Below, in pieces: positions 5,119 to 62,612 of a stretch of 64,000 nt of DNA (within the stretch, counting starts at the first letter, position 1; each line of letters starts with the position of its first letter). Below the pieces are notes generated by a model. It worked only from the letters and a program-made list of their open reading frames with translations, had not been told where the DNA came from and ran no database searches. Both the position numbers and the translations under genes were made by a program. The DNA lies in assembly GCA_964439025.1 (NCBI GenBank), contig CAYTMW010000009.1, forward strand, positions 35,749 through 99,748. The letters are read 5' to 3'. Origin of the DNA: an uncultured Gemmatimonas sp. GTDB taxonomy: Bacteria; Gemmatimonadota; Gemmatimonadetes; Gemmatimonadales; GWC2-71-9.

Positions 5119-5152
5119 ACCCCAAATGTAGCGAGCCAAGGGACTTATGGAC

Positions 5153-5180
5153 CCCTGAGCCCTGAGCCCTGACCCCTGAC
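5153..5180. repeat. Heptamer tandem array (CCCTGAG)x2(CCCTGAC)x2
   Basis: Read directly from the sequence. Sits in the divergent spacer between the VIT1 start (5118) and the ECF sigma start (5227). Confidence 0.9.
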
Positions 5181-5226
5181 CACTCGCTGGTGCGACTATC
5201 TTCGCTTCCCCTGCATCTTTACAGTC

Positions 5227-6410: not shown

Positions 6411-7310
6411 ATGTCGTTTCGTCTGATGTCTCTCGCTGCCCTCTCCCTTGTGTCGGCCTTTCCGGCCGCTGCCCCGGCCCAGGAGCGGCAGCCCGTTACC
6501 CGCGCCAGAATCTATTTCGATGGCGACACCACCCTGATGCGGGACCGCATGCGCGCCATCACCCAGCGCAGGGCGCGTCTCGGTGTCGTCGTGGACATGC
6601 GCGCGAGCGACACCGACTCGATCGGCGCCACGCTGCAGACCGTCACCCCGGGGGGTCCGGCGGCCAAAGCCGGTCTCAAGACCGGCGATATCGTCACCCG
6701 CATCGACGGGAAGTCGCTGATCGCGACCGACAACACCAGGAGCGGCTCCGATGAATCGCTGCCTGGCGTCCGGCTGGTGGAATACGCCACCCAGCTCCAG
6801 CCTAACGACACCATCAGCGTCGAGTACCGGCGCAGCGGTTCGCGCCACACCGCCTCGCTGGTCACCGGTGATGAGCTCATCAGGATGGAAGTCTTTCCCG
6901 ACGGCGGCGACTTCAACTTCAAGGTGCCCGGTGGGATCACGATGGAACGGACTCCGTTTCGCGGCATGATCCGCGGCGAGCAGCTCCCCGGCGGCGCCAT
7001 GTCCTACTCCCTCGCCTTCGGAGGGGGGCCCCTTGCCGATCTCGAGCTCGCGCCGCTCAATGCCGACCTCGGCCAGTACTTCGCTACCACCGAAGGCGTG
7101 CTGGTGATCAACGTCCCGAAGGAGTCCACCCTGGGGCTCAAGGGGGGCGACGTCATCCTGGGCATCGATGGCCGCAAGGCGACGGGCCCCGGCAGCCTGC
7201 TGCGCATTCTCCGCAGCTATGACCCCGGGGACAGCTTCAAGCTCGACATCATGCGGAACAAGACCCGGACCACCATCACCGGAAAACTGGCAACAAAAAA
7301 CAGGGAGTAG
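6411..7310 (+). CDS. Secreted protein with two PDZ domains
   Basis: Signal peptide MSFRLMSLAALSLVSAFPAAAPAQ, preceded by GAGGAG. Two 'GGPAAKAGLKTGDI...IDG' / 'LGLKGGDVILGIDG' PDZ-type segments. The track ORF starts 15 nt earlier (6396). Confidence 0.8.
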   Translation: MSFRLMSLAALSLVSAFPAAAPAQERQPVTRARIYFDGDTTLMRDRMRAITQRRARLGVVVDMRASDTDSIGATLQTVTPGGPAAKAGLKTGDIVTRIDGKSLIATDNTRSGSDESLPGVRLVEYATQLQPNDTISVEYRRSGSRHTASLVTGDELIRMEVFPDGGDFNFKVPGGITMERTPFRGMIRGEQLPGGAMSYSLAFGGGPLADLELAPLNADLGQYFATTEGVLVINVPKESTLGLKGGDVILGIDGRKATGPGSLLRILRSYDPGDSFKLDIMRNKTRTTITGKLATKNRE

Positions 7311-7373
7311 GCAGGAGGCAGGAGGCAGGAGGCAGGAGGCAGGAGGGAAAAGCTTACCCACCTGCCTCCTCCC
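7311..7373 (+). terminator. (GCAGGAG)x5 heptamer array plus complementary CCTGCCTCCT arm; a hairpin followed by a T-rich tract
   Basis: Array at 7311-7345. AGGAGGCAGG pairs with CCTGCCTCCT (7361-7370). The downstream sequence is cttcgcttttcgctattcttct. Starts 1 nt after the PDZ gene stop. Confidence 0.45.
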
Positions 7374-7419: not shown

Positions 7420-8391
7420 ATGTCCCGACGCGCCTACAGTCGATGCGCGCTGGCGCTGGTCCTGGCAGGCATCCCGCTCCCGCCTGCGCTCGAGGCGCAG
7501 CGGCTCCCGCCGTATTCCTCGATGAATCCGATGGTGCAGCGGCGGAGCGGGCTCGCGACGATTCCCTGGGTCGAGGAGGGGACACGATGGCGGGTGAGCT
7601 GGCTCACCGATTACGCCAGCACCATCGAGTACACCGACCTCCCGGCGATCCAGTATCTCCAGGACGCGGAGCTAGTGCGTTTGGAGCTGACCGCGGCGCG
7701 AACGGTCGGGAGTCGGGGGTTCGTGCTGGTCTCGGGAAGCCTGCAGGGCGCCTACGATGGATTCCTCGACGGGTTGCTCAATTGGTACCACGATTTCACC
7801 GGTCTCCAGGTCGCGGCGCGGAAGCTCCGCCCGAAGAACGAGTTCGCCTACAAGGTCGCATTCGCCGGCGGGCAGTCGGCTGAGTATTCGCCGTCGTCGG
7901 GGTTTCTGGGCGACGTGCGGATCGGGGCGGGCCTCAGGCACTCGAAGCACTGGATGACCGCGTTCTCCGTCACCCTCCCGACCAGCACCGGCCCCAAAGG
8001 CTTTCGGAAAGGTGTACCGTCGTTCAATGCGACGACGACGCTGCGGAGTAATTTTGCGGAACGGTTCACTTACGAAGGCACGCTGAGCGCCGGTTACACG
8101 GGGGCGCACGGGGACTTCAAGGACCTGCAGCATACTACATTCCTGATGGTGACCCAGGGCCTGCGGGGGAGGGTTACCGGCCCGCTCCATCTCTACGCCA
8201 ACCTCATCTACCACTCGGCGCTCTATCGCGACACCGGAGCGAAGGCCCTCGACGCCCGAGAGCTCACCATCGACACCGGCGGATTCCTGAGGTTCAAGCG
8301 CGGCCCCGAGTGGATCCTTGGACTGACCGAGGATCTCGAGCCGAGCGGCCCGGCGATCGACGTGGCCTTCAGGTTTGGGGCGCGCTGGTAA
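7420..8391 (+). CDS. Hypothetical outer-membrane-like protein (possibly DUF3187-like)
   Basis: Start at MSRRAYSRCALALVLAG (signal-like). Beta-rich composition, C-terminal ...AFRFGARW. The family call is from memory only. Confidence 0.6.
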   Translation: MSRRAYSRCALALVLAGIPLPPALEAQRLPPYSSMNPMVQRRSGLATIPWVEEGTRWRVSWLTDYASTIEYTDLPAIQYLQDAELVRLELTAARTVGSRGFVLVSGSLQGAYDGFLDGLLNWYHDFTGLQVAARKLRPKNEFAYKVAFAGGQSAEYSPSSGFLGDVRIGAGLRHSKHWMTAFSVTLPTSTGPKGFRKGVPSFNATTTLRSNFAERFTYEGTLSAGYTGAHGDFKDLQHTTFLMVTQGLRGRVTGPLHLYANLIYHSALYRDTGAKALDARELTIDTGGFLRFKRGPEWILGLTEDLEPSGPAIDVAFRFGARW

Positions 8392-8611
8392 AGAGAAACT
8401 GCGCCATCTGGTCCAGTAGGTATTGTTTCGCCTTCGGCTCGCGAAGATTGAGGGCGTAGTGGTTGATCAGCTGCTGCTGGTACTTGAGCCACTCGGCCCA
8501 GCAAACCGCGCAGATCTCCTGGAAGACCCGCTTGCCTAGGTCGTTCGGGAAGGGAGCGAAGGCTTGGGCTTCGCGGGCAAGCCGGCAGCGGGTGCAGGTG
8601 GTTTGCGGCAT
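8369..8611 (-). CDS. yggX: Fe(2+)-trafficking / oxidative-damage protection protein YggX
   Basis: 80 aa with 'C.RC....EAQAF.PFP..LGKRV..EIC..CWAEWLK.QQ.LINHY.LN' matching the YggX pattern. Confidence 0.85.
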   Translation of the reverse strand: MPQTTCTRCRLAREAQAFAPFPNDLGKRVFQEICAVCWAEWLKYQQQLINHYALNLREPKAKQYLLDQMAQFLFTSAPQT

Positions 8612-8627
8612 GCCGGAAAATAACGGA

Positions 8628-8793
8628 TGTCACCCTGAGCGAAGCGAAGGGGCCGGTCCCTCCGCGGGCTCGGGGCGGACTGGCCTCCGGGGGCGCTCGA
8701 GTTCGCGGTACTCACTAGCGCCCCAGTCGTCAGCCCGCTCCCTGCGCCCGCTGGAGGTCGCGCCGACCATCGCGTGGGTCACCCGGGTGATGA
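8628..8793 (+). mobile_element. MITE-like foldback repeat, copy A (degraded right end)
   Basis: Aligns by eye with 22807-22990 and the reverse complement of 62440-62605. Shared left end (T)GTCACCCTGAGCGAAGCGAAGGGG and core CTCCGCGGGCTCGG..GCGG.CTGGCCTCCGGGGGCGCTCGAGTTCGCGGTACTCACTAGCGCCCC.GTCGTCAGCCCGCTCCCTGCGCCCGCTG. Confidence 0.6.
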
Positions 8794-8936
8794 GTGGGGC
8801 TCGCCATAGGGGACGTCGGGCCGTGAGGGCTCCGCGTGAAGTGATGAGGTGTGTTGGCCCGCAGGCCCCGTGGGCGAGTCCCACTCGAGCCCGGGGGTGA
8901 GACGGCAGTTCGTGTTCACCGCGCACGTTCACGCAG

Positions 8937-9233
8937 TTACCGGACGTCCCCCCGCTGCAGCGCCTTGACGCCGCTCCGCGTCCCCAGCCCCGCCCCGAGC
9001 CCGACCACCGCCGCCGTCACCCCGGTGATCACGATCTTGACCAGCGGAAGCATCGTCAGCGGCATGACCAGGATTGCCGCACCCACCGCGGCAAGGACCG
9101 GAGCCGCCGGAGAGCGGATCGCGTCCACGAACCGCAGGCGCCGGCGCACGAAGCCGCGCGCAAAACCGAAGGCCAGAACGCCGCTCCCAACCGTCACAGT
9201 CAGGGCCAGTATCGCAATGATGGTGTTGATCAT
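8937..9233 (-). CDS. Small membrane protein, unknown function
   Basis: Start at MINTIIAILALTV with GGAGG 6 nt upstream. Two or three hydrophobic helices. Confidence 0.6.
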   Translation of the reverse strand: MINTIIAILALTVTVGSGVLAFGFARGFVRRRLRFVDAIRSPAAPVLAAVGAAILVMPLTMLPLVKIVITGVTAAVVGLGAGLGTRSGVKALQRGDVR

Positions 9234-9303
9234 AGAGCCTCCAAGGCCAAGGAATCGTGTTTCACTACGAAACATAGCCCCAACAGGTTTCACCGCGAGG
9301 CTG

Positions 9304-10302
9304 TCACCACCGGAGAGCGCAGCTCGCCCAGACAAAGCCCGATCCGAATGCCGTGAGCACCACCAGATTCCCCGGCAAAAGCCGCCCGGCCCGGACGCAC
9401 TCGTCGAGGGCGATCGGAATCGTCGCCGCGGTGGTATTTCCGTAGCGCTGGATGTTGTTGTAGGTCTGATCGTCCCGGAGCCCGAGCGTCTTCTGGATTG
9501 CCTCGGAGATCCTGAGGTTGGCCTGGTGCGCGATGAGCAGGGTGATGTCCTCCACCCCCGACCCGACTTTCGCCAACACGGTGCGCACCGATTCCGGCAT
9601 CCGGATCACGGCGTGACGGAAGACCTCTTTGCCGTCCATCGACAGCCAGCACTTTCCGTCGGCGATCTCGTTCGGCCAGTCCTCCAGACGCACCATCGCG
9701 CTCGGACCCTCCACCCAGAGTTTTTCCGCGTTGTCGCCCTGACTGTGCAGATCGAAGGCGGCAAAGCCCCGCCCTGCCTCCTCGGTCGCCCCGAGCAGGA
9801 CGGCTCCCGCGCCGTCGGCAAAGATCACCGCCGTATTGCGGCCCTCCGTCGAGAGCTCCATGCGGGTCGACTGGATTTCCTGGCCCACCACGAGGACCCG
9901 GCGGAAGGCGCCGGTCTGGATATAGGCGTCGGCGACGGACAGCGCGTACACGAATCCGGCGCACTGCATCCGGATGTCGATCGCGGGAATGGTCGCGGTG
10001 AGCCCGAGGGCGCGCTGGAGGAACACCCCATTACCGGGAGCAAAATGGTCTGGAGTGGAAGTGGCGTAGACGATCGCGTCGACACTGCCCGGCTCAAGCC
10101 CGGCCATCTCCAGCGCCTGAAGCGAGGCGTCCCGGCCGAAGCTCACGCCCGACTCCCCCGGAACGATCCAGTGCCGCTGCTGGATCCCGGTGCGGGCCCG
10201 GATCCATTCGTCCGAGGTATCCATGTAGCGCGACAGGTCGTCATTGGTGACGACCTGTGCGGGAACAGCGCGTCCGGTGCCGAGGATGACGCTGCGAGGC
10301 AT
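9304..10302 (-). CDS. fabH: Beta-ketoacyl-ACP synthase III
   Basis: 332 aa: 'TSDEWIRARTGI..R', active-site 'QCAGFVYAL', 'AHQAN.RI', 'YGNTTAATIPIAL', 'FGSGF.WA'. Confidence 0.92.
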   Translation of the reverse strand: MPRSVILGTGRAVPAQVVTNDDLSRYMDTSDEWIRARTGIQQRHWIVPGESGVSFGRDASLQALEMAGLEPGSVDAIVYATSTPDHFAPGNGVFLQRALGLTATIPAIDIRMQCAGFVYALSVADAYIQTGAFRRVLVVGQEIQSTRMELSTEGRNTAVIFADGAGAVLLGATEEAGRGFAAFDLHSQGDNAEKLWVEGPSAMVRLEDWPNEIADGKCWLSMDGKEVFRHAVIRMPESVRTVLAKVGSGVEDITLLIAHQANLRISEAIQKTLGLRDDQTYNNIQRYGNTTAATIPIALDECVRAGRLLPGNLVVLTAFGSGFVWASCALRW

Positions 10303-10309
10303 ACGGGAA

Positions 10310-10346
10310 GCTAACGGCTAACCGCTAACAGCCGTTAGCCGTTAGC
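10310..10346 (-). terminator. Hairpin built from GCTAACN heptamers (13-bp perfect stem)
   Basis: GCTAACGGCTAAC (10310-10322) is the exact reverse complement of GTTAGCCGTTAGC (10334-10346), with an 11-nt loop. Lies 2 nt downstream of the permease stop and 8 nt upstream of the fabH start. Confidence 0.4.
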
Positions 10347-13937: not shown

Positions 13938-15241
13938 AGCGTCCTCCCGATGAGGGCCGAGATCGACGCCCGGGCGCGCACGTAGTCGAACCGCGCGGTC
14001 ACGGCGTCCACTTCGGCCTGATTGAGCGCTTCCTGCGAGGTCAGGATGTCCACGATGGTGGCCGCCCCGAGGCGATAGCGCTCCTGCTGAATCCGGAGGT
14101 CCTCCTCGGCCGCGAGGACACTGGTCTGGGTAATCGTGATCGTGAGCCGTGCCGCCTCCAGCGCGGCAATGGCAGCGCTGAGGCTGGCGAGCACCGAGCG
14201 GCGCGAGTCCGCCGCCTGCGCTTCGGCGTTCTCCAGTGCGGTTAGCGAATTCACGATGCCCTGCTCGCGCTGAAACCGGTTGAAGATCGGCCAGTTGAGG
14301 CCCAGGCTGATCGACCGCGACTGCAGAAAGGTGTAGCTGTTCCGCGAGCTGCCGTTGAGCGAGGTGGAGCCCGAGAGGTTGAGCGTCGGATAGTAGCCCG
14401 CCCGCGACACCTGGATTGCTGCGCGCGCGGCCACCGCCGACGCTTCCGCCGCCTTGACCGAGGGAGAGTTGGCGACCGCCTCCTGGCGGAGCGCGGCGCT
14501 GTCGAGGACCGGCAGCATGGCGTAGAGCGTCGAATCATCCACCGCGCCGACCGGGCCGTCCGCGCCGACGAGGCGTCCGAGATTGGCCTCGGCGGTGGCG
14601 AGCGCGCTGCGCTGGTTGATCAACTGAAGCTGGGCGTTGCCGAGCGTCACCACCGAGCGCAGCGAATCGGGGCGAATGCCCCGTCCCGCGTGCAGCTTGG
14701 CCACCGACACCTTGAGCTGCTCCTCGGCGCGGCGCACACTGGACTCCCGGACCGTGAGCAGCTGTTCCGCGGCGAGTACGTCGAAGAACTGGTTCGTCGT
14801 GGTGAGCTGCTGCTGAAACCGGGCGTTCGACAGGCTGGCATCGGCGGCATCGCGGTTGGCGCTGGCCGCCTTTTTTTCGCCGGTGCGCCGGAATCCCGCG
14901 AAGAGATCGACGTTGGTGCTCAGGGTGGCGCCGGCGCTCCCGGTCGAGGTCCCGCTGGTGGTGAACTGCCCGGTGCTGGGGTCGAGCTGCTGCCCTTCAG
15001 AAAACTGGCTGGCGCGCGAGCCGCTCAAGGTGAGACTGGGAAGAAAAGCGCCGGAGGCCGAGCGCTGGCGCGCCTGGGCGTTCCGCACCGTGCCGCCCGC
15101 AGATATGACGCTCGGCTGGACCAGATTGGCCCGCTGGATCGCCTCCCCCAGGGTGATCTTGGGGGCCTGGGCCCCGACCGGTACCGCACCCACGAGCACG
15201 CTCAAGGAGAGAAGCAGGGCGCTGCGATTACCGACGACCAT
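13934..15241 (-). CDS. TolC-family outer membrane efflux protein
   Basis: Start at [26 protein letters not shown]. Two-repeat TolC-like pattern ('L.LGEAIQRA....P', 'YYPTLNLSG', 'NWPIFNRFQ'). Confidence 0.85.
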
Positions 15242-18688: not shown

Positions 18689-19055
18689 ATGGCCGCTGTG
18701 GCGTTGGGATGGGTACCGGAGCGGTGCGCGGGGGCGAGGAAGATCTATCCGGTGACGCGGACGTTTCCATCTGATGAACGATTCGGTCTGACGATGTAAT
18801 GTCGGCGAGCCGCGGTCTCAATCATGGCGAATCTCGCAAGAAGGCTGCGGCCGCAATGGGGATAGGGAATTACGCCGCTTCGTCAACATCGCTCTCGGAT
18901 CTGCGGCGGAGTCGGACGCACATCTCACTCTCGCAAGTGATCTGGCGATGGCCCCGGCGGATCAGCTGACCCCGATTCAAGATGAGCTCGGGTCAATCCG
19001 CAGCATGCTCGCCCGCCTCGCTCAGAAGCTGTCCGATAGCCGGACCGATAGCTGA
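18689..19055 (+). pseudogene. Four-helix-bundle protein (23S rRNA intervening-sequence protein family) pseudogene
   Basis: Conceptual translation carries ..IYPVTRTFPSDERFGLTM*CRRAAVSIMANLA then, after a 1-nt shift, EGCGRNGDRELRRFVNIALGSAAESDAHLTLASDL... In-frame TAA at 18797-18799. Frameshift near 18838. Confidence 0.65.
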
Positions 19056-19058
19056 TAG
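19035..19058. repeat. Right arm of the 24-bp perfect inverted repeat; part of a GATAGCC array (19035-19078)
   Basis: GATAGCCGGACCGATAGCTGATAG. It overlaps the last codons and stop of the pseudogene. Confidence 0.9.
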
Positions 19059-19080
19059 CCGATAGCCGATCGCTATCCGG

Positions 19081-19946: not shown

Positions 19947-19999
19947 GGGGTTGGGGGTTGGGGGTTGGGGGTTGGGGGCTGGGGGTTGGGGGTTGGGGG
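19947..19999 (+). repeat. (GGGGGTT)x8 heptamer array (one CT variant); (CCCCCAA)n on the coding strand of the flanking genes
   Basis: Read directly from the sequence. Starts 8 nt upstream of the cyclophilin start codon and ends 13 nt downstream of the preceding gene's stop. Confidence 0.95.
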
Positions 20000-22120: not shown

Positions 22121-22774
22121 ATGGACGAGATGGAGCCGCTCCTGGAAGAAGCGATCCGCGCCCTCTCCGCCGCCTTCGCGACGGATCGACTGTCACTCGA
22201 CCAGTTCGAGTCCCGCCTGGTGCTGGTGCGCCAGGCCCCCAACCGCGCCACACTCGACGCGATCCTCGCCGACCTGGTGCCCTCGGAAGAATTCACCATC
22301 CCCACCGGACTCGTGGCGGCGGCGGATCACACCGGTGGGGCTGGGCACCATGAGCTCATTCCGGTCGAGCCGGCGGAGCTGCTGCGGATCAAAACGGTCA
22401 TGGGCTCTTCCAAACGGGCCGGCTCCTGGACGGTCCCGCTCCGCCTCGAGCTCAAGGTGGTTCTTGGAGAGCTCACCATCGACTTGCGCGATGCGGTCTT
22501 CTGCTCCGACGTGCTGGACGTCGACGTAAACGTGGTGCTCGGCAGCCTGACCCTGATTGTCCCCGCCGGCACCCAGGTCGAGAACGAAAGCGAGGAGAAA
22601 TTCAGCAGCTCGAGTCATTCGGTGCGCTCGACCAAGGGCCTTGCCCGGATCGGGCTCCTGGTCCGCATCACCGGCCAGGTCAAGTGGAGCAGCCTCGAGA
22701 TCAAGGAGAAGCGGCCCACGGGAGAAGGACCCCAGATGCCGCGATGGATGAAGATGCTGGGGGCGGGGGAGTGA
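22121..22774 (+). CDS. DUF1707 + LiaF-like C-terminal domain protein
   Basis: N-terminus 'DRLSLDQFESRL......A..RA.LDAILADL'. C-terminal beta-rich 'VLGELTIDLRDA...DV.VNVVLGSLTLIVP.G' is LiaF-like. Family call from memory. Confidence 0.6.
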   Translation: MDEMEPLLEEAIRALSAAFATDRLSLDQFESRLVLVRQAPNRATLDAILADLVPSEEFTIPTGLVAAADHTGGAGHHELIPVEPAELLRIKTVMGSSKRAGSWTVPLRLELKVVLGELTIDLRDAVFCSDVLDVDVNVVLGSLTLIVPAGTQVENESEEKFSSSSHSVRSTKGLARIGLLVRITGQVKWSSLEIKEKRPTGEGPQMPRWMKMLGAGE

Positions 22775-22798
22775 GCGGTGAGCGGTGAGCGGTGAGCG
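22771..22798. repeat. (GTGAGCG)x4 heptamer array
   Basis: Read directly from the sequence. The first unit contains the TGA stop (22772-22774) of the upstream gene. It abuts MITE copy B. Confidence 0.95.
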
Positions 22799-22806
22799 GG
22801 AACACC

Positions 22807-22990
22807 GTGTCACGCTGAGCGCAGCGAAGCCGAGGCTCACGTCTCTCCGCGGGCTCGGGAGCGGGCTGGCCTCCGGGGGCGCTCGAGTTCGCTATGCTCA
22901 CTAGCGCCCCCGTCATCAACCCGCTCCCTGCGCCCGCTGACAATCCCGGGTTGTCCACGCTTCGGTCGCTGCGCTCTTTCAGTGTGACAC
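22807..22990 (+). mobile_element. MITE-like foldback repeat, copy B (most complete, long terminal inverted repeats)
   Basis: Left end GTGTCACGCTGAGCGCAGCGAAGCCGAGG. Reverse complement of the right end GTGTCACACTGAAAGAGCGCAGCGACCGAAGCGTGG. Internal nested stems GGGAGCGGGCTG/CAaCCCGCTCCC and GGGGGCGCT/AGCGCCCCC. Confidence 0.65.
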
Positions 22991-23017
22991 CAGCACCCAG
23001 CATCCAGCATCCAGCAA
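22990..23017. repeat. (CCAGCAY)x4 heptamer array
   Basis: Read directly from the sequence. Lies between the right end of MITE B and the nth stop codon (23018-23020). Confidence 0.9.
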
Positions 23018-38905: not shown

Positions 38906-40358
38906 GCTCGCGGCCCAGATCGGCCACCGCGGTAACGAAGAGATCGAAATCGTCGAGACGGCTTCGATGGTTGGTGATGGCGACCCGGATCGCAAAGCGT
39001 TCGTTCAGTGATGTCGCCGACGGCACGGCGATGCCCCGCTCCTGAATCCGGAGGAGGAGTTCGCGATTCAGAGCATCGAGTGCTTCCCCCCTCCCTCTTC
39101 CCCCTTCCCCCTTCCCCACATACCGCAGGCACACGACATTGAGCGGGACGGGTGCCATCAGCTCCAGCTCGGCGTGCCGCTGGACGAGTCCCGCGAGATA
39201 CTTGGCCTGCTCCACGTTCTGCTCGATCAACCTCGCATACTTCGCCACTCCATGTTCCTGGAGCAGCATCCACACCTTGAGCCCGCGGAACTCGCGGGAG
39301 AGCTCGGGTCCAAGCGCGCCCGGGTCGTGGTCGTTCGGCGCGGCGCCGCGCGCCTCGCGAGCCAGGTAACTCGCTTTGGTTGCGAAGGGACGGCGGTGCG
39401 CCTCGCGGTCGCGCACCAGCACGCACCCGACGTCGTAGGGCATGTAAAGCCACTTGTGCAGGTCGTACGCGATCGAGTCGGCGCGCTCCATTCCCGCCAC
39501 CAGCGGCCGCAACCGGTCGGAGAGCGCGGCGAGGGCGCCGAACGCGCCATCGACGTGGAACCAGAGCCCCTCGCGCTCACAGAGGTCCGCCAGCGCGGAA
39601 AGATCATCGATCGCTCCCGTGTTGACGGTGCCGGCGTTCCCGACCACGCAGAACGGCCGCCGTCCCGCCGCGCGATCGTCGGTAATCGCCCGCGCGAGGG
39701 CGGCGAGATCGATCCGGAACTCCGCATCCACCGGAACCGCCCGAAACGCGCGCTGGCCGAGGCCGAGGAGGCGGACCGCCTTGTCCACGGAGTTGTGGGT
39801 CTGCGTGGACGCGTAGAGCACCGGTGATCCGTCGAGCGCGGCGAGTCCCTCTTCGGTGATCCTGGGATCGCCTGCGTCGCGCGCCGCCGCGAGTGCCACG
39901 AGATTGGCGACCGATCCCCCCGTCACCAGCACGCCACTCGCTTCGGCGGGATACCCCACCATCGTCTTGCACCAGTCGATCACCTGCTCCTCGACATAGG
40001 GCGCCGCCTGGTGACCGCCGCCGGCGTTGGTATTGATGACCGCCGTCGCGAGTTCGGCGAGCGCGCCGCTCGGGCTCCCGGTCCCGTTGACCCATCCCCA
40101 GAAGCGCGGGTGCACGTTCCCCCAGGGGTACGGCAGCACCGATCGGCGAAACTCGTCCCAGCTTGCCTTGAGCCCGCAGCCTTCCTGCGGCAAGGGGCGC
40201 CGGAGTGCCGCGCGCACCTCCTCCGGCACCGGCTGCCAGACCGGCCGGTCTCGCAACGTGCGCAGCCACTCGAAGAGCTCGTCGAGCACCTGGTGGCCGT
40301 GGGCACGGAATTCATCCCAGGATTCGGGGTCGAGGGACTCATGCGGGCGACTGGTCAT
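38889..40358 (-). CDS. PLP-dependent group II (aromatic amino acid/glutamate-type) decarboxylase
   Basis: Contains 'HPRFWGWV', 'GGSVANL.ALAAAR', 'W.HVDGA.GA' and 'DLHKWLY.PYD.G' (PLP lysine). Confidence 0.85.
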   Translation of the reverse strand: MTSRPHESLDPESWDEFRAHGHQVLDELFEWLRTLRDRPVWQPVPEEVRAALRRPLPQEGCGLKASWDEFRRSVLPYPWGNVHPRFWGWVNGTGSPSGALAELATAVINTNAGGGHQAAPYVEEQVIDWCKTMVGYPAEASGVLVTGGSVANLVALAAARDAGDPRITEEGLAALDGSPVLYASTQTHNSVDKAVRLLGLGQRAFRAVPVDAEFRIDLAALARAITDDRAAGRRPFCVVGNAGTVNTGAIDDLSALADLCEREGLWFHVDGAFGALAALSDRLRPLVAGMERADSIAYDLHKWLYMPYDVGCVLVRDREAHRRPFATKASYLAREARGAAPNDHDPGALGPELSREFRGLKVWMLLQEHGVAKYARLIEQNVEQAKYLAGLVQRHAELELMAPVPLNVVCLRYVGKGEGGRGRGEALDALNRELLLRIQERGIAVPSATSLNERFAIRVAITNHRSRLDDFDLFVTAVADLGRELSALV

Positions 40359-40405: not shown

Positions 40406-41956
40406 ATGCTTCTCTTCGCTCTTTCGTTGTTCACCAGCATCCAGTCTCCAGCATCCAGCATCCAGCTGCCGGATTCCTCCCTGCGCTCCCGCGTCGCATC
40501 CTGGCGCGCCTCCCGCGAAACGGACATCGTAGCCGAGCTGACGCGCTTCCTCTCCATTCCGAACGTCGCGAGCGACTCGGTCAATATCCGGCGCAACGCG
40601 GCACTGATCATCGCGATGCTCGAACGCCGCGGCGCCACGGCCCGCATCCTCGAGTCGCCCGGGTCGCCCCCAGCGGTGTACGGCGAGCTGCTCACCCCCG
40701 GCGCGGCCCGGACCGTGGTGTTCTACGCGCACTACGACGGGCAGCCGGTTGATTCGGCGCGATGGGTGACACCGCCCTGGCGGGTGGTGTTGCGTGACGG
40801 CGCCCTCACCAAAGGTGCACGCGAAATCGCCTTCCCCACCGCGGGGGGGCGATTCGATCCGGAGTGGCGACTCTACGCGCGCTCGGCAAGCGACGACAAA
40901 TCTCCCATCGTCGCGATGCTGACCGCGCTCGATGCCCTGAAGGCGCTCGGGCAGCGACCGTCGATCAATCTCAAATTCTTCTTCGAGGGAGAGGAAGAAG
41001 CCGGTTCCGCGCATCTCGGCGAGATGCTCACTCGTCATGCCGCCCTGCTCAAGGCCGATCTCTGGCTCTTCGGGGATGGGCCGGTGCACCAGAGCAGGCA
41101 GCCCAAGGTGTCGTTCGGGGTGCGCGGCGTGATGGGCGTCAATCTCACCGTGTACGGCCCTGCGCGCCCGCTGCACAGCGGTCACTACGGGAACTGGGCC
41201 CCCAATCCCAACGTGATGCTCGCCCATCTCATTGCCTCGCTGCGCGACGAGGAGGGGAGGATCTTGATCGAGCGTTTCTACGATGACGTGCTTCCGTTTT
41301 CGGCAGCGCAGCGCGCCGCGCTCGCAACGATGCCCCATATCGACGCGCAGCTGACGGCGGATCTCCGGCTCGGCCGAACCGAAGGATCCGGCGCGGGCCT
41401 GGCGGAACAGGTCTCGCGACCGGGACTCAATGTCAGCGGAATGTCGGGGGGGCGCACCGGTGCCGCCGCCGCGAACGTTATCGTCCCCGAGGCCACCGCG
41501 TATATCGATTTCCGGCTGGTACCGGATCAGCGACCCGAGCGGGTACGCGCGCTCCTCGAAGCACATCTCGTCACGCGGGGCTACCACGTCGTGCACGAAG
41601 ATCCCGATTCGGCGACCCGTCGCGCCCATCCTCGCATCATCAAGGTGACCGGGGACGGCGGCTATCCCGCAATCAGCACCGCGCTCGATCTCCCCGTCTC
41701 CCGCGCGGTGATTCGCGCGGCGGAAGCCGCCCTCGGAGAGCCGGTGGTCGTGGAGCCGCCGCTCGGGGGGAGTCTCCCGCTGTACCAGTTCAAGGAAGTG
41801 CTCGGCGCCACGCTCATCATGGTGCCGATCGTGAATCACGACAACAATCAACACGCCGAGAACGAGAACCTGCGGATCAAGAATCTGTGGGACGGGATCG
41901 AGCTGTATGCGGGATTGCTGGCCTATCTGGGGGCGTTCTGGGGGCAGGTGCCGTAG
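40406..41956 (+). CDS. M20-family dipeptidase/peptidase
   Basis: Contains 'L..FLSIPNV', 'YAHYDGQPV', 'RSASDDK', 'FFFEGEEE.GS', 'N.H..NE'. The start is uncertain: the first 21 codons include a heptamer array. Confidence 0.85.
   Translation: MLLFALSLFTSIQSPASSIQLPDSSLRSRVASWRASRETDIVAELTRFLSIPNVASDSVNIRRNAALIIAMLERRGATARILESPGSPPAVYGELLTPGAARTVVFYAHYDGQPVDSARWVTPPWRVVLRDGALTKGAREIAFPTAGGRFDPEWRLYARSASDDKSPIVAMLTALDALKALGQRPSINLKFFFEGEEEAGSAHLGEMLTRHAALLKADLWLFGDGPVHQSRQPKVSFGVRGVMGVNLTVYGPARPLHSGHYGNWAPNPNVMLAHLIASLRDEEGRILIERFYDDVLPFSAAQRAALATMPHIDAQLTADLRLGRTEGSGAGLAEQVSRPGLNVSGMSGGRTGAAAANVIVPEATAYIDFRLVPDQRPERVRALLEAHLVTRGYHVVHEDPDSATRRAHPRIIKVTGDGGYPAISTALDLPVSRAVIRAAEAALGEPVVVEPPLGGSLPLYQFKEVLGATLIMVPIVNHDNNQHAENENLRIKNLWDGIELYAGLLAYLGAFWGQVP
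40434..40468. repeat. (CCAGCAT-like)x5 heptamer array
   Basis: CCAGCAT CCAGTCT CCAGCAT CCAGCAT CCAGCTG, the same unit as at 22990-23017. Lies in the 5' end of the predicted M20 ORF. Confidence 0.9.
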
Positions 41957-42566: not shown

Positions 42567-42594
42567 GCTATCGGCTATCGGCTATCGGTCCGGC
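42567..42594. repeat. (GCTATCG)x3 + GTCCGGC array
   Basis: Read directly from the sequence. It encodes the last residues (..AGPIADSR) and the stop of the TetR gene. GCTATCGGTCCGGC is also present at 18634-18647, and its reverse complement at 19039-19052. Confidence 0.9.
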
Positions 42595-51957: not shown

Positions 51958-52010
51958 GGGGTTGGGGGTTGGGGATTGGGGAACTCCCCCAGCCCCCAAC
52001 CCCCAAACCC
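51958..52010. terminator. Long imperfect G-run/C-run hairpin built from GGGGTT-type units between convergent genes
   Basis: GGGGTTGGGGGTTGGGGATTGGGG-AACT-CCCCCAGCCCCCAACCCCCAAACCC. Sits between the S41 stop (51955) and the M61 stop (52010-52012). Confidence 0.45.
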
Positions 52011-57877: not shown

Positions 57878-59284
57878 ATGATCCGCCGTCCCCTTGTGCT
57901 ACCCCTCGCCCTCCTGGCATGGACGCTGGTGCTTCCCCTCTCGGCACAGAACCGGAGAGCCGCGGCGCAGGCCAACCCCATCCAGCGCGAGTACCAGGCG
58001 GCCGCCGACCGGATCATCGCCGCGGCAACCGCCGACAGCGCGGCATGGAACAAGCTGGCCGAACTCACCGACGGCTTCGGCCATCGGCTGAGCGGCAGCG
58101 AGGCGCTGGAGCAGGCCATCGACTGGGTCATCGCCCGGATGAAGTCCGAAGGATTGGAGAACGTCCGCGGGGAGCCGGTGATGGTGCCCCGCTGGGTCCG
58201 GGGCCACGAGCAGGCTGAGCTACTGGAGCCCCGCTACGCCAAGCTGTCGATGCTCGGCCTTGGGCAAAGCGTCGGCACGCGCCGCGGCGGGATCCAGGCG
58301 GAGGTGCTGGTCGTCTCGAGCTTCGACGAGCTCAAGGCGCACGCGGCCGAGGCGCGGGGAAGAATCGTGCTGTTCGACGTGCCGTTTACGAATTATGGCC
58401 AGACGGTGCGGTATCGCGGGACCGGCGCGGTCGAGGCGGCAAAGGTCGGCGCGGTGGCGATGCTGCTCCGGTCGGTCGGACCGTTCGGGATGCGGACGCC
58501 GCACACCGGCTCGATGCAGCCGTACGATTCGACGGTGACGCGGATTCCCGCCGCGGCGATCACGATGGAAGACGCCGCGCTGCTGCACCGCATGCAGCAG
58601 CGCGGCCAGAAGATCGTCGTCCGGCTCGAGATGGAAGCCCAGATGCTTCCCGATTCGCCCTCGCGCAATGTGGTGAGCGAGCTCACCGGGCGGGAGAAGC
58701 CGGCGGAGGTGGTGGTCTTCGGCGGCCACATTGATTCCTGGGACGTGGGCACCGGAGCGATGGATGACGCCGGCGGTGTGGTCATCGCCTGGGAGGCCGT
58801 ACGCCTGCTGCAGAAGCTCGGGCTCCGCCCCCGGCGCACCATCCGCGTCGTCGGATGGACCAACGAGGAGAACGGCGGGCGCGGCGGCCAAGCCTATCGC
58901 GACGCGCACCGGAGCGAGCTCGTCGGCCACGTGGCGGCGATCGAGTCCGACGGCGGGACATTCAAGTTCCGCGGCTTCGGCTTCACCGGCAGCGATTCCG
59001 CCTACGCGATGGTCCGGCAGATCGCCAAGCTGCTCCGGCCGCTGGGCGGGGATTCGGTGACCGTGGGAGGCGGCGGCGCCGACATCGGGCCGATCATGGC
59101 GCTCGGCGTCCCCGGCCTCTCGCACAACGTGGATGGCACCCGATACTTCTGGTACCATCACACCGACGCCGACACCGTGGACAAGATCGACCCCCGGGAG
59201 CTGGCCGAGAACGTGGCGGCGATGGCGATCATGGCGTATGTACTGGCTGACCTGCCCAGTCCGCTACCACGTATTAGGCAGTAG
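57878..59284 (+). CDS. M28-family aminopeptidase, secreted
   Basis: Start at MIRRPLVLPLALLAWTLVLPLSAQ. Contains 'FGHRLSGSEALE.AI.W' and 'VVFGGHIDSWD.GTGA.DD..G'. Confidence 0.85.
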   Translation: MIRRPLVLPLALLAWTLVLPLSAQNRRAAAQANPIQREYQAAADRIIAAATADSAAWNKLAELTDGFGHRLSGSEALEQAIDWVIARMKSEGLENVRGEPVMVPRWVRGHEQAELLEPRYAKLSMLGLGQSVGTRRGGIQAEVLVVSSFDELKAHAAEARGRIVLFDVPFTNYGQTVRYRGTGAVEAAKVGAVAMLLRSVGPFGMRTPHTGSMQPYDSTVTRIPAAAITMEDAALLHRMQQRGQKIVVRLEMEAQMLPDSPSRNVVSELTGREKPAEVVVFGGHIDSWDVGTGAMDDAGGVVIAWEAVRLLQKLGLRPRRTIRVVGWTNEENGGRGGQAYRDAHRSELVGHVAAIESDGGTFKFRGFGFTGSDSAYAMVRQIAKLLRPLGGDSVTVGGGGADIGPIMALGVPGLSHNVDGTRYFWYHHTDADTVDKIDPRELAENVAAMAIMAYVLADLPSPLPRIRQ

Positions 59285-59341
59285 ACAGTAGGCAGTAGGC
59301 AAGAGCTGTTCACTACTGCCAATTGCCCACTCCCTATTGCC
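59277..59341. repeat. (GGCAGTA-like)x4 array and inverted (TANTGCC-like) period-7 array; the central 8-bp stem may act as a terminator
   Basis: GGCAGTA GACAGTA GGCAGTA GGCAAGA at 59277-59304. TACTGCC AATTGCC CACTCCC TATTGCC at 59314-59341. The M28 TAG stop lies inside the first array. Confidence 0.85.
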
Positions 59342-62434: not shown

Positions 62435-62439
62435 TCCGG

Positions 62440-62605
62440 GTGTCACGCTGAGGGGCCCACCCGTATCTGCAGCGGGCGTAGCGAGCGGGCTGACGACGGG
62501 GGTGCTAGTGAGTACCGCGAACTCGAGCGCCCCCGGAGGCCAGCCCGCTCCCGAGCCCGCGGAGAGACACGGGGATCCGCCCCTTCGCTTCGCTCAGGGT
62601 GACAA
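62440..62605 (-). mobile_element. MITE-like foldback repeat, copy C (inverted orientation)
   Basis: Its reverse complement aligns with copies A and B over the whole core. It fills the convergent spacer between the permease stop (62434) and the TldD/PmbA stop (62613). Confidence 0.6.
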
Positions 62606-62612
62606 CTGTAGG

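Follow-up and report, generated by a model that had tools for sequence, protein, structure and literature searches.

The 64-kb stretch of DNA from an uncultured Gemmatimonas sp. that was analysed here (hereinafter, the window) contains copies, denoted A, B and C, of a foldback repeat that is best interpreted as a non-coding, non-autonomous, mosaic mobile element of 140-190 nt residing in a Gemmatimonas-like chromosome. There is hardly any doubt that the repeat is mobile: copy B occupies a site that is empty in four related lineages, and further copies are present in a related metagenome-assembled genome (MAG), in agreement with the non-autonomous mobile element proposed in a preliminary description made from the sequence alone. 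The element consists of a terminal hairpin that faces outward, a linker, an inner hairpin of about 92 nt and, where the copy is complete, a short inverted version of the head (GTGACA). The terminal hairpin has a matching head, a C in the tail and a doublet architecture, on the strength of which we assign it, with good confidence, to the class that comprises CGTC-tagged repetitive extragenic palindromic (REP) sequences and Ssn-related motifs (SRMs). The best explanation of the observations as a whole, with a probability of roughly 0.55, is that the repeat is an SRM-class composite element that resembles REPINs (inverted REP doublets) and miniature inverted-repeat transposable elements (MITEs) and is probably handled in trans by an Ssn-type nuclease.

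To delineate the insertion, the orthologous PolX-nth/DUF1707 locus was compared between the window and four related lineages, L263, L253, L265 and L257-L262, in which the Nth protein is, respectively, 93%, 92%, 89% and 87% identical to that of the window; L253 belongs to the same MAG that carries at least six copies of the element elsewhere. The nth/DUF1707 spacer is 243 nt long in the window versus 60-75 nt in the four lineages. It reads (GGTGAGC)n-GGGA-CCGACCCAGCATCCAG in L265 and (GTGAACG)n-GGA-CCAGCACCCAG in L257, so that the flanks GGGA and CCAGCAC are directly joined, and the two heptamer arrays abut without an element. In the window, (GGTGAGC)n-GGGA is followed by ACACCG-TGTCAC...GTGTGACA and then by CCAGCACCCAGCATCCAG. 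Copy B is a clean insertion of 188 nt exactly between the two arrays, with a one-base ambiguity, and any target duplication at its junction, the single site with an empty allele, does not exceed 1 nt. The position of this copy had been correctly recognized, but its limits, previously placed at 22807-22990, are replaced by those in the table below. The insertion/empty polymorphism implies that the element is dispensable at a given site.

When one genome per species was scanned for an invariant 20-mer from the core of the element, 13 hits were obtained. Six of these are true copies, all in the 'uncultured Gemmatimonas sp.' MAG CAZHSO01 (GCA_964535105.1); the remaining seven are fortuitous matches to protein-coding sequences of unrelated taxa. 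The 92% identity of the Nth proteins indicates that the window derives from a Gemmatimonas-like species related to that of the MAG. The cores of the window copies are 92% identical to each other, those of the MAG copies 91%, and comparison across the two genomes also gives 91%, with no clustering of the copies by genome.

Within the window, a core profile search detects exactly three copies, and these fall where the preliminary description had placed them. The copies share a common core of 92-99 nt with about 91-94% identity: the arms of B and C (22841-22939 and 62470-62568) are 92% complementary over 99 nt, and those of A and C (8672-8756 and 62467-62551) are 92% complementary over 85 nt. All three begin with TGTCAC(C/G)CTGAGCG(A/C)AGCGAAG; the previously noticed form of this start, GTCAC(C/G)CTGAGCG(A/C)AGCGAAG, is matched three times against 0.02 expected. 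Each copy can also fold into a long rod, as originally suggested, with predicted energies of -118.1 kcal/mol for B (z = -8.9), -98.8 kcal/mol for C (z = -5.1) and -97.5 kcal/mol for A (z = -2.9), and the long imperfect terminal inverted repeats reported for copy B are apparent in its fold. The right boundary of copy A, in contrast, had been misplaced at 8793: this copy ends at about 8764, and the supposed right end, GGGTCACCCGGGTGATGAG, is the head of an adjacent repeat of a different foldback family, fam2, with a GTCACCCGGG head and a rod fold of its own (z = -5.3). The two relatives of fam2 (L121:3099-3251 and L121:4957-5090) both reside in one MAG locus. The circumstances that the preliminary description had named as bearing against a mobile element turned out otherwise, with more than three copies, an empty-site polymorphism and no hit in Rfam, and the foldback persists once the true ends are used.

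Alignment of the nine copies (A, B and C along with six from the MAG: L121, L122, L127, L129, L131 and L132) reveals a mosaic organization. The most conserved part is the core of about 92 nt (CCGCGGGCTCGGG...GCCCGCTG), and the outer parts are homologous but interrupted by numerous indels. Three copies (A, C and L121) have the entire terminal hairpin, three (B, L127 and L131) have a degenerate version of it, and L122 and L132 lack it. On the 3' side, an inverted head is present in B, C, L127 and L131, and a direct copy in L121 and L129, with neither in the other copies; the inverted ends TGTCACSCTGAG / CTCAGSGTGACA span 12-14 nt in the former four copies, with a greater length in B. On the 5' side, TGTCAC is preceded by about six semi-conserved bases, which in copy B are part of the inserted sequence. 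The minus-strand sequence of the core apex is AGT-GAGCG(C/T)AGCGA-ACT; the GAGCG(C/T)AGCGA segment is perfect in L122, L127, L131 and L132 and contains 1-3 mismatches in the window copies. This apex is the same loop module as that of the terminal hairpin, placed on a long stem without a GTC head.

Features of the element copies and their immediate surroundings in the window
Feature	Coordinates	Strand	Basis
Copy B, complete inserted element, 188 nt	22802..22989	+	Empty-site comparison with four related lineages; rod fold
Copy B, left terminal hairpin TGTCACGCTGAGCGCAGCGAAGCCGA, stem partly degenerate	22808..22833	+	Pattern match; head and loop as in the widespread motif
Copy B, conserved core hairpin	22847..22939	+	nhmmer E = 3.6e-24; 88-95% identity to the other eight copies
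Copy B, core apex, minus strand GAGCATAGCGA, one mismatch to the GAGCGNAGCGA loop module	22889..22899	-	
Copy B, right arm, imperfect inverted repeat of the left arm, end GTGTGACA	22958..22989	-	Fold pairing with 22807-22835
Heptamer array (GTGAGCG)x4, left of the copy B insertion site	22771..22799	.	TRF; empty sites
Heptamer array (CCAGCAT)x3.9, right of the copy B insertion site	22990..23016	.	TRF; empty sites
Copy A, no right inverted end, abutted by another element	8628..8764	+	Pattern, profile, alignment
Copy A parts: terminal hairpin motif; core	8628-8653; 8662-8753	+	
Copy C	62441..62604	-	Pattern, fold, profile search
Copy C parts: terminal hairpin; core; short right inverted end CTCAGCGTGACA	62579-62604; 62470-62562; 62441-62452	-	
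fam2, different foldback repeat family adjoining copy A, outside the element	8765..8922	+	87% identity to two L121 copies

The terminal hairpin (top strand as an oligonucleotide, TGTCACCCTGAGCGAAGCGAAGGGGC) has the form (T/C)GTC, a 5-bp stem, GA, GCGNAGC, GA, the complementary side of the stem and C; the flanking GA/GA would presumably form tandem sheared pairs. According to the preliminary description, this end motif occurs in many genomes, and this statement is borne out: the pattern GTCAYNCTGAGCGNAGCGAAG is found in more than 120 IMG/VR viral-contig stretches among the matches listed. The consensus derived from 149 non-redundant viral instances is T-GTC-A-T-Y-C-T-GAGCGNAGCGA-A-G-R-A-T-C-T-C, and the stem is exactly 5 bp long in 127 of the 191 instances used for this measurement. 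The one stem pair that is free to vary is of the Watson-Crick type in 141 of 149 instances (T-A 68, C-G 61, G-C 8, A-T 4), compared with a mean of 61.7 and a maximum of 84 over 10,000 shuffles. All four bases occur at the N position of the loop, and GCGNAGC, when N is unconstrained, is identical to the 'mini-hairpin DNA' motif described by Hirao and co-workers (PMC13037366). The base that follows the palindrome is C in 141/149 instances, and the base that precedes GTC is T in 129/149 and C in 15/149, neither being imposed by the search pattern. In the window, the TGTC head is present in all three hairpins, and the C after the palindrome is found in A and C (AGGGG-C) but not in B; the outer stem, ACCCT/AGGGG, opens with an A.G mismatch followed by a C-G pair.

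In the viral set, 27 of 150 motifs have an inverted partner downstream, with the heads pointing outward, forming elements of 54-156 nt, whereas the upstream control yielded 6; the element in Gemmatimonas is an extended form of this heads-outward hairpin doublet. A blastn search with copy B and with the viral-type doublet against PLSDB and INPHARED produced no match. The motif shows no orientation bias with respect to genes (33 versus 30 in co-directional spacers of viral loci), and the only recurrent neighbours across 120 viral loci are phage structural genes, with no transposase among them. The earlier statement that no curated family could be named holds in the sense that Rfam yields no window match at the gathering score (only chance miRNA-hairpin hits with E > 0.2) and, for ten viral motif loci, nothing apart from one tRNA; it does not hold for the end hairpin, which has a described class, the CGTC-tagged REPs and Ssn-related motifs. 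Full-text literature search for the motif string retrieved only chance primer matches, and searches for Gemmatimonas repeats and for follow-up work on Ssn retrieved nothing beyond PMC3733652, PMC11893778, PMC13037366, PMC3116915 and PMC3337134. Two other candidates were rejected. A hammerhead-like reading of CTGAGCG...GAAG fails on inspection at the CUGANGA core, and an isolated GAGCGCAGCGA at 14655-14665, in the OEP gene, has neither a flanking stem nor an in-register GTC-A head and is most likely a chance occurrence.

A link between this hairpin class and Ssn nucleases emerges from the surroundings of ssn genes. The NTS/SRM hairpins (CGTCATTCCCGCGMAVGCGGGAATCYRG) are bound and cut by GIY-YIG Ssn nucleases only as single-stranded DNA; cleavage is governed by the three bases before the palindrome (GTC is needed) and is reported to occur 'a few nucleotides upstream', binding depends most on the C immediately 3' of the palindrome, and ssn genes are bracketed by SRMs in the manner of an insertion sequence (Chenal et al. 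2025, PMC11893778). Using an Ssn consensus sequence as the query, we retrieved thousands of PF01541 proteins of about 95 aa with 75-82% identity. Hairpins with a (C/T)GTC head flank ssn in 75 of 80 metagenome loci (SRM-ssn-SRM), typically with one hairpin about 40 nt upstream (plus strand) and one about 40 nt downstream (minus strand), the canonical form being ATTCCCGCG-NNN-GCGGGAAT-CCA.

The protein clade and the type of the flanking hairpin co-vary. The signature REKQIKKWNR is present in 102/120 hits of one set (P0001-P0120) and REKQIKAGSR in 104/120 hits of another (P0121-P0240); the former accompanies ATTCCCGCG-NNN-GCGGGAAT hairpins, and the latter accompanies ATTGC-GAGCGNAGCG-GCAAT hairpins. 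In five betaproteobacterial lineages (Nitrosomonas nitrosa, an 85%-identical relative, the P0148 group, P0146 and Ferriphaselus amnicola), ssn genes of the IKAGSR subclade are flanked by GTCATTGC-GA(G/A)CG(N)AG(C/T)G-GCAATCCA, and read-through N-termini such as 'CHCERSVAIQ' agree with this hairpin. In N. nitrosa (L194), the upstream flank of ssn is CGTCATTGC-GAACGTAGTGA-AGCAATCCA and the downstream flank is CGTCATTGCGAGGCGGC...GCCGCCGYGGCAATCCA; the GAGCATAGCGA variant of the core apex is also found in the ssn-flanking hairpins of this species. Around ssn, N. nitrosa contains tandem units of about 230 bp bounded by CGTCATTGC-GAGCGCAGCGA-AGCAATCCA and the second, downstream type of hairpin, with heads outward, and the number of units varies among strains (L214-L219, ssn at 1501-1791), from one downstream unit in L215 to five in L214. 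Alpha-like viral loci contain further SRMs with GCGCAGCGAAG in the loops. Together, the five IKAGSR lineages and the viral loci indicate that the GA-GCGNAGC-GA loop defines a genuine class of ssn-flanking hairpins. The exact ATTCT type of the motif occurs within 0.5 kb of a canonical ssn cassette in one locus (L138).

Two variants were observed on the side. In viral contigs L239, L241 and L243-L245, ssn is flanked by long-loop hairpins, GTCATCCCGCA-CGAAGCGCAGCGAAGA-TGCGGGACCCAG, in which the mini-hairpin module sits inside a canonical SRM shell, and a contig that also carries ssn and a canonical SRM contains a long-stem variant, CGTCATTCTGGG-GAGCGAAGCGA-CTCCAGAATC (L181:381 and L181:621). Gapped DNA patterns that join the motif to conserved Ssn codons yielded 0 hits in viral contigs, and a second small GIY-YIG type used as the query in viral contigs yielded two uninformative loci.

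Under the explanation that we favor, the hairpin would form on DNA that becomes single-stranded during replication, repair or uptake. A small GIY-YIG nuclease of the Ssn type, encoded elsewhere in the genome, would bind the hairpin through recognition of the GTC head and the C that follows the palindrome and would introduce a nick a few bases upstream of the head; repair or copying of the folded strand could then carry the element into spacers at gene ends, with no target-site duplication. Two parts of this scheme are inferences: the presence of a cognate Ssn gene in the genome and a role of Ssn cleavage as the driver of mobility, as opposed to a role confined to marking or restricting single-stranded DNA. 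To Ssn-driven mobility, we give somewhat less than even odds. Copy B begins 7 nt upstream of GTC, a distance that is compatible with the scale reported for the Ssn cut, but this is not evidence for such a cut.

Several observations weigh against this explanation. No Ssn-like open reading frame (ORF) was found by phmmer, regular expressions or profile search in the window, the six MAG loci or the 120 viral motif loci, and among the Ssn clades examined, none is tied specifically to the ATYCT or the ACCCT stem. The ACCCT/AGGGG stem and the tail of the window hairpins differ from those of the ATTGC...GCAAT-CCA type that lies beside ssn. The motif also fails the published SRM expression, HGTCWYN(0-2)YYVSBRHN(0-5)WNVSBRGN(0-2)RNCYNB, which matches the canonical NTS but not copies A, B and C, the viral consensus or the ssn-flanking motif of N. 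nitrosa, and has 0 hits across the whole window. Nearest-neighbour DNA folding does return the hairpin shape, at -1.9 to -3.1 kcal/mol, which is no better than shuffled sequences, so that the support for the hairpin comes from covariation. Conservation is lower in the ends of the element than in the core, and L122 and L132 lack the ends, which would be unusual if the ends were the sites of action; the combination of a strongly conserved core with loose ends is not explained by the Ssn model. As the apex has the same loop, the core may be a second recognition module, or it may be under separate selection. Finally, Ssn is known only to cut single-stranded DNA and to modulate transformation, and is not known to carry out transposition (PMC11893778).

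The same observations bear on three other explanations. The element could be of the REPIN/PATE type and be moved by a Y1 (HUH) transposase, either RAYT or the TnpA of IS200/IS605 elements. Y1 enzymes recognise subterminal hairpins in single-stranded DNA and leave no target duplication, and the architecture is the same, with intergenic inverted doublets of a short hairpin that has an unpaired conserved head and no target duplication (PMC3116915, PMC3337134). However, the head is (T/C)GTC (GTC-A) rather than GT[AG]G, CGTC REPs are not associated with RAYT genes (PMC3733652), no PF01797 gene is found among the window genes or recurs by the motif in the 120 viral loci, and in five lineages the loop type flanks ssn, not Y1 genes; we consider a Y1-driven element unlikely. 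A classical MITE, that is, an internally deleted derivative of a DDE-transposase insertion sequence that moves via its terminal inverted repeats, would account for the inverted ends of B, C, L127 and L131. Nevertheless, this possibility appears very remote given the lack of a duplication of more than 1 nt at the sole site with an empty allele and the nature of the 'terminal inverted repeat', which is an internally covarying hairpin common to many unrelated contigs and not an end specific to an insertion sequence; furthermore, the ends are optional, the core is conserved, and no parent insertion sequence is seen.

The element might, alternatively, be primarily a functional transcript module, such as a 3'-end stabiliser, a bidirectional hairpin terminator or a small RNA, that spreads by recombination and whose core is under selection at the RNA level. 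Convergent spacers hold five of the nine known copies, the conservation of the core among copies equals that of coding DNA, and REPs of E. coli affect mRNA decay. The mismatches in the core are mostly C.A on the plus strand, which correspond to G.U/G.T in the complement, and six of the nine copies fold better as the minus strand; these are weak signals on which we do not rely. Against such a role, there is no match to an Rfam family and no U-tract, promoter match or terminator match at the element; the orientation of the copies relative to neighbouring genes is inconsistent, as is that of the widespread motif; the loop N varies exactly as in the DNA GNA mini-hairpin; and the element is dispensable at a given site. 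Accordingly, of the 'repeated structured module' envisaged in the preliminary description, the repeated foldback stands, whereas its RNA or terminator interpretation has gained little support and seems quite improbable as the primary function. The element may still have a side effect on mRNA 3' ends.

The genomic setting of the element is that of an ordinary chromosome. The window genes backed by third-position G+C content and Pfam matches are ordinary chromosomal genes, encoding a rhomboid protein, VIT1, FabH, a MacB/HlyD/OEP efflux system, Nth, PolX, a TonB receptor and peptidases; none of them codes for a transposase, an integrase, or a Y1/HUH or GIY-YIG protein. Copies B and C had been thought to fill convergent spacers completely, which is the case for C, whose spacer (62435-62612) is delimited by the stop codons of the MacB/FtsX permease gene (62434) and of pmbA (62613). 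Copy B, located between the convergent nth and DUF1707-protein genes, takes up 188 of 243 nt, and heptamer arrays make up most of the rest. Copy A lies in a spacer between co-directional minus-strand genes, and its head is, as previously described, 17 nt upstream of the start of yggX (ORF 8369-8611, minus strand), the identity of which is supported by a Pfam match to Iron_traffic. Beside copy A, a plus-strand ORF of 487 aa (8851-10314) has no Pfam hit and is antisense to fabH (9304-10302, minus strand), and is therefore probably spurious; a small hydrophobic minus-strand ORF, at about 8950-9232, seemingly lies between fabH and the repeats.

Short tandem arrays of heptamers, detected with Tandem Repeats Finder (TRF), are found in many window spacers, typically at gene ends. 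Apart from the two arrays that border copy B (22771-22799 and 22990-23016), they are located at 5150-5181, 7309-7346, 19033-19070, 19947-19999, 39083-39117, 40434-40466, 42567-42588, 51958-51981 and 59275-59301, and the units include GACCCCT, AGGCAGG, CCGATAG, GGGGTTG, GTGAGCG, CCAGCAT, CTTCCCC, GCTATCG and TAGGCAG. In the nth/DUF1707 spacer, the units are of the CTTCCCC type in L253 and L263, GTGAACG and CCAGCAC in L257, and GGTGAGC and CCAGCAT in L265 and the window; such differences between close relatives point to fast turnover of the arrays.

The new observations are the empty site, the widespread class of GA-GCGNAGC-GA hairpins and the pairing of this class with a distinct Ssn subclade. 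They connect an unannotated repeat of Gemmatimonadota to a recently discovered enzyme family and show that both the published SRM definition and Rfam miss an entire hairpin class that is abundant in metagenomic and viral contigs and that, as suggested in the preliminary description, may give rise to many spurious 'hypothetical proteins'. The question of Chenal et al. (PMC11893778) on the mobility of SRM-ssn-SRM units and their gene-less derivatives becomes directly testable thanks to the clean empty site without a duplication and the strain-variable, hairpin-bounded arrays around the Nitrosomonas ssn. In practice, masking of the motif would eliminate spurious ORFs and account for contig breaks in MAGs from soil. 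More speculatively, and with considerable doubt on our part, the hairpin could represent a widespread bacterial and phage class of single-stranded-DNA recognition sites for Ssn-type GIY-YIG nucleases, with the rods being 'Ssn-MITEs'. If so, a GIY-YIG nuclease would be the engine of a transposition-like process that involves neither a covalent intermediate nor a target duplication, and the extraordinarily stable d(GCGNAGC) mini-hairpin would be the structural key of this process.

Comparison with known systems places the element close to, but not squarely within, several described groups. With SRMs, it shares the unpaired GTC directly before the palindrome, the C directly after it, the high copy number, the heads-outward pairs such as those around ssn genes, the loop type found next to ssn of the IKAGSR subclade and, in the widespread form of the motif, a stem that opens with A-T, T-A. 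It differs in having a 5-bp stem, tandem G.A pairs and a mini-hairpin of 2 bp and 3 nt in place of the continuous 8-9-bp stem of SRMs, and in the tail, which is CTC or CCG/CGG rather than CCA; in the window copies, furthermore, the first pair of the ACCCT/AGGGG stem is mismatched. The CGTC-tagged REPs have an unpaired CGTC/TGTC head, a stem that opens with A-T, T-A and a 3-nt tail; their dimers fold into larger hairpins, they have 'no dedicated transposase', and Gemmatimonadota are not among the phyla for which they have been reported (Di Nocera et al. 2013, PMC3733652). The element resembles them in the head, the short 3' tail, the intergenic location mainly at gene ends, the dimers and the lack of a dedicated transposase. 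The families of CGTC-tagged REPs, however, have 8-9-bp stems and 4-5-nt loops, as opposed to the 5-bp stem, tandem G.A, 2-bp stem and 3-nt loop of the motif, and their dimers are mostly head-to-head, whereas the doublets of the element have heads outward with a 92-nt family-specific hairpin in between. REPINs (Bertels and Rainey 2011, PMC3116915) are likewise two inverted short hairpins that jointly form one long hairpin, are non-autonomous, leave no target duplication and apparently persist within a lineage; they differ in the GTAG head and the Y1 transposase partner, neither of which is seen here. The mosaic build, with an outer hairpin that is inverted, direct, degenerate or absent around a constant inner module, is reminiscent of the enterobacterial bacterial interspersed mosaic elements (BIMEs), although the sequences and the partner proteins are different. 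BIMEs are mosaics of REPs and other short motifs, and their partners in E. coli are gyrase, integration host factor (IHF) and RAYT. All things considered, we regard the Gemmatimonas element as a further variety of the REP/REPIN and CGTC-REP/SRM kind and not as the founder of a new category.

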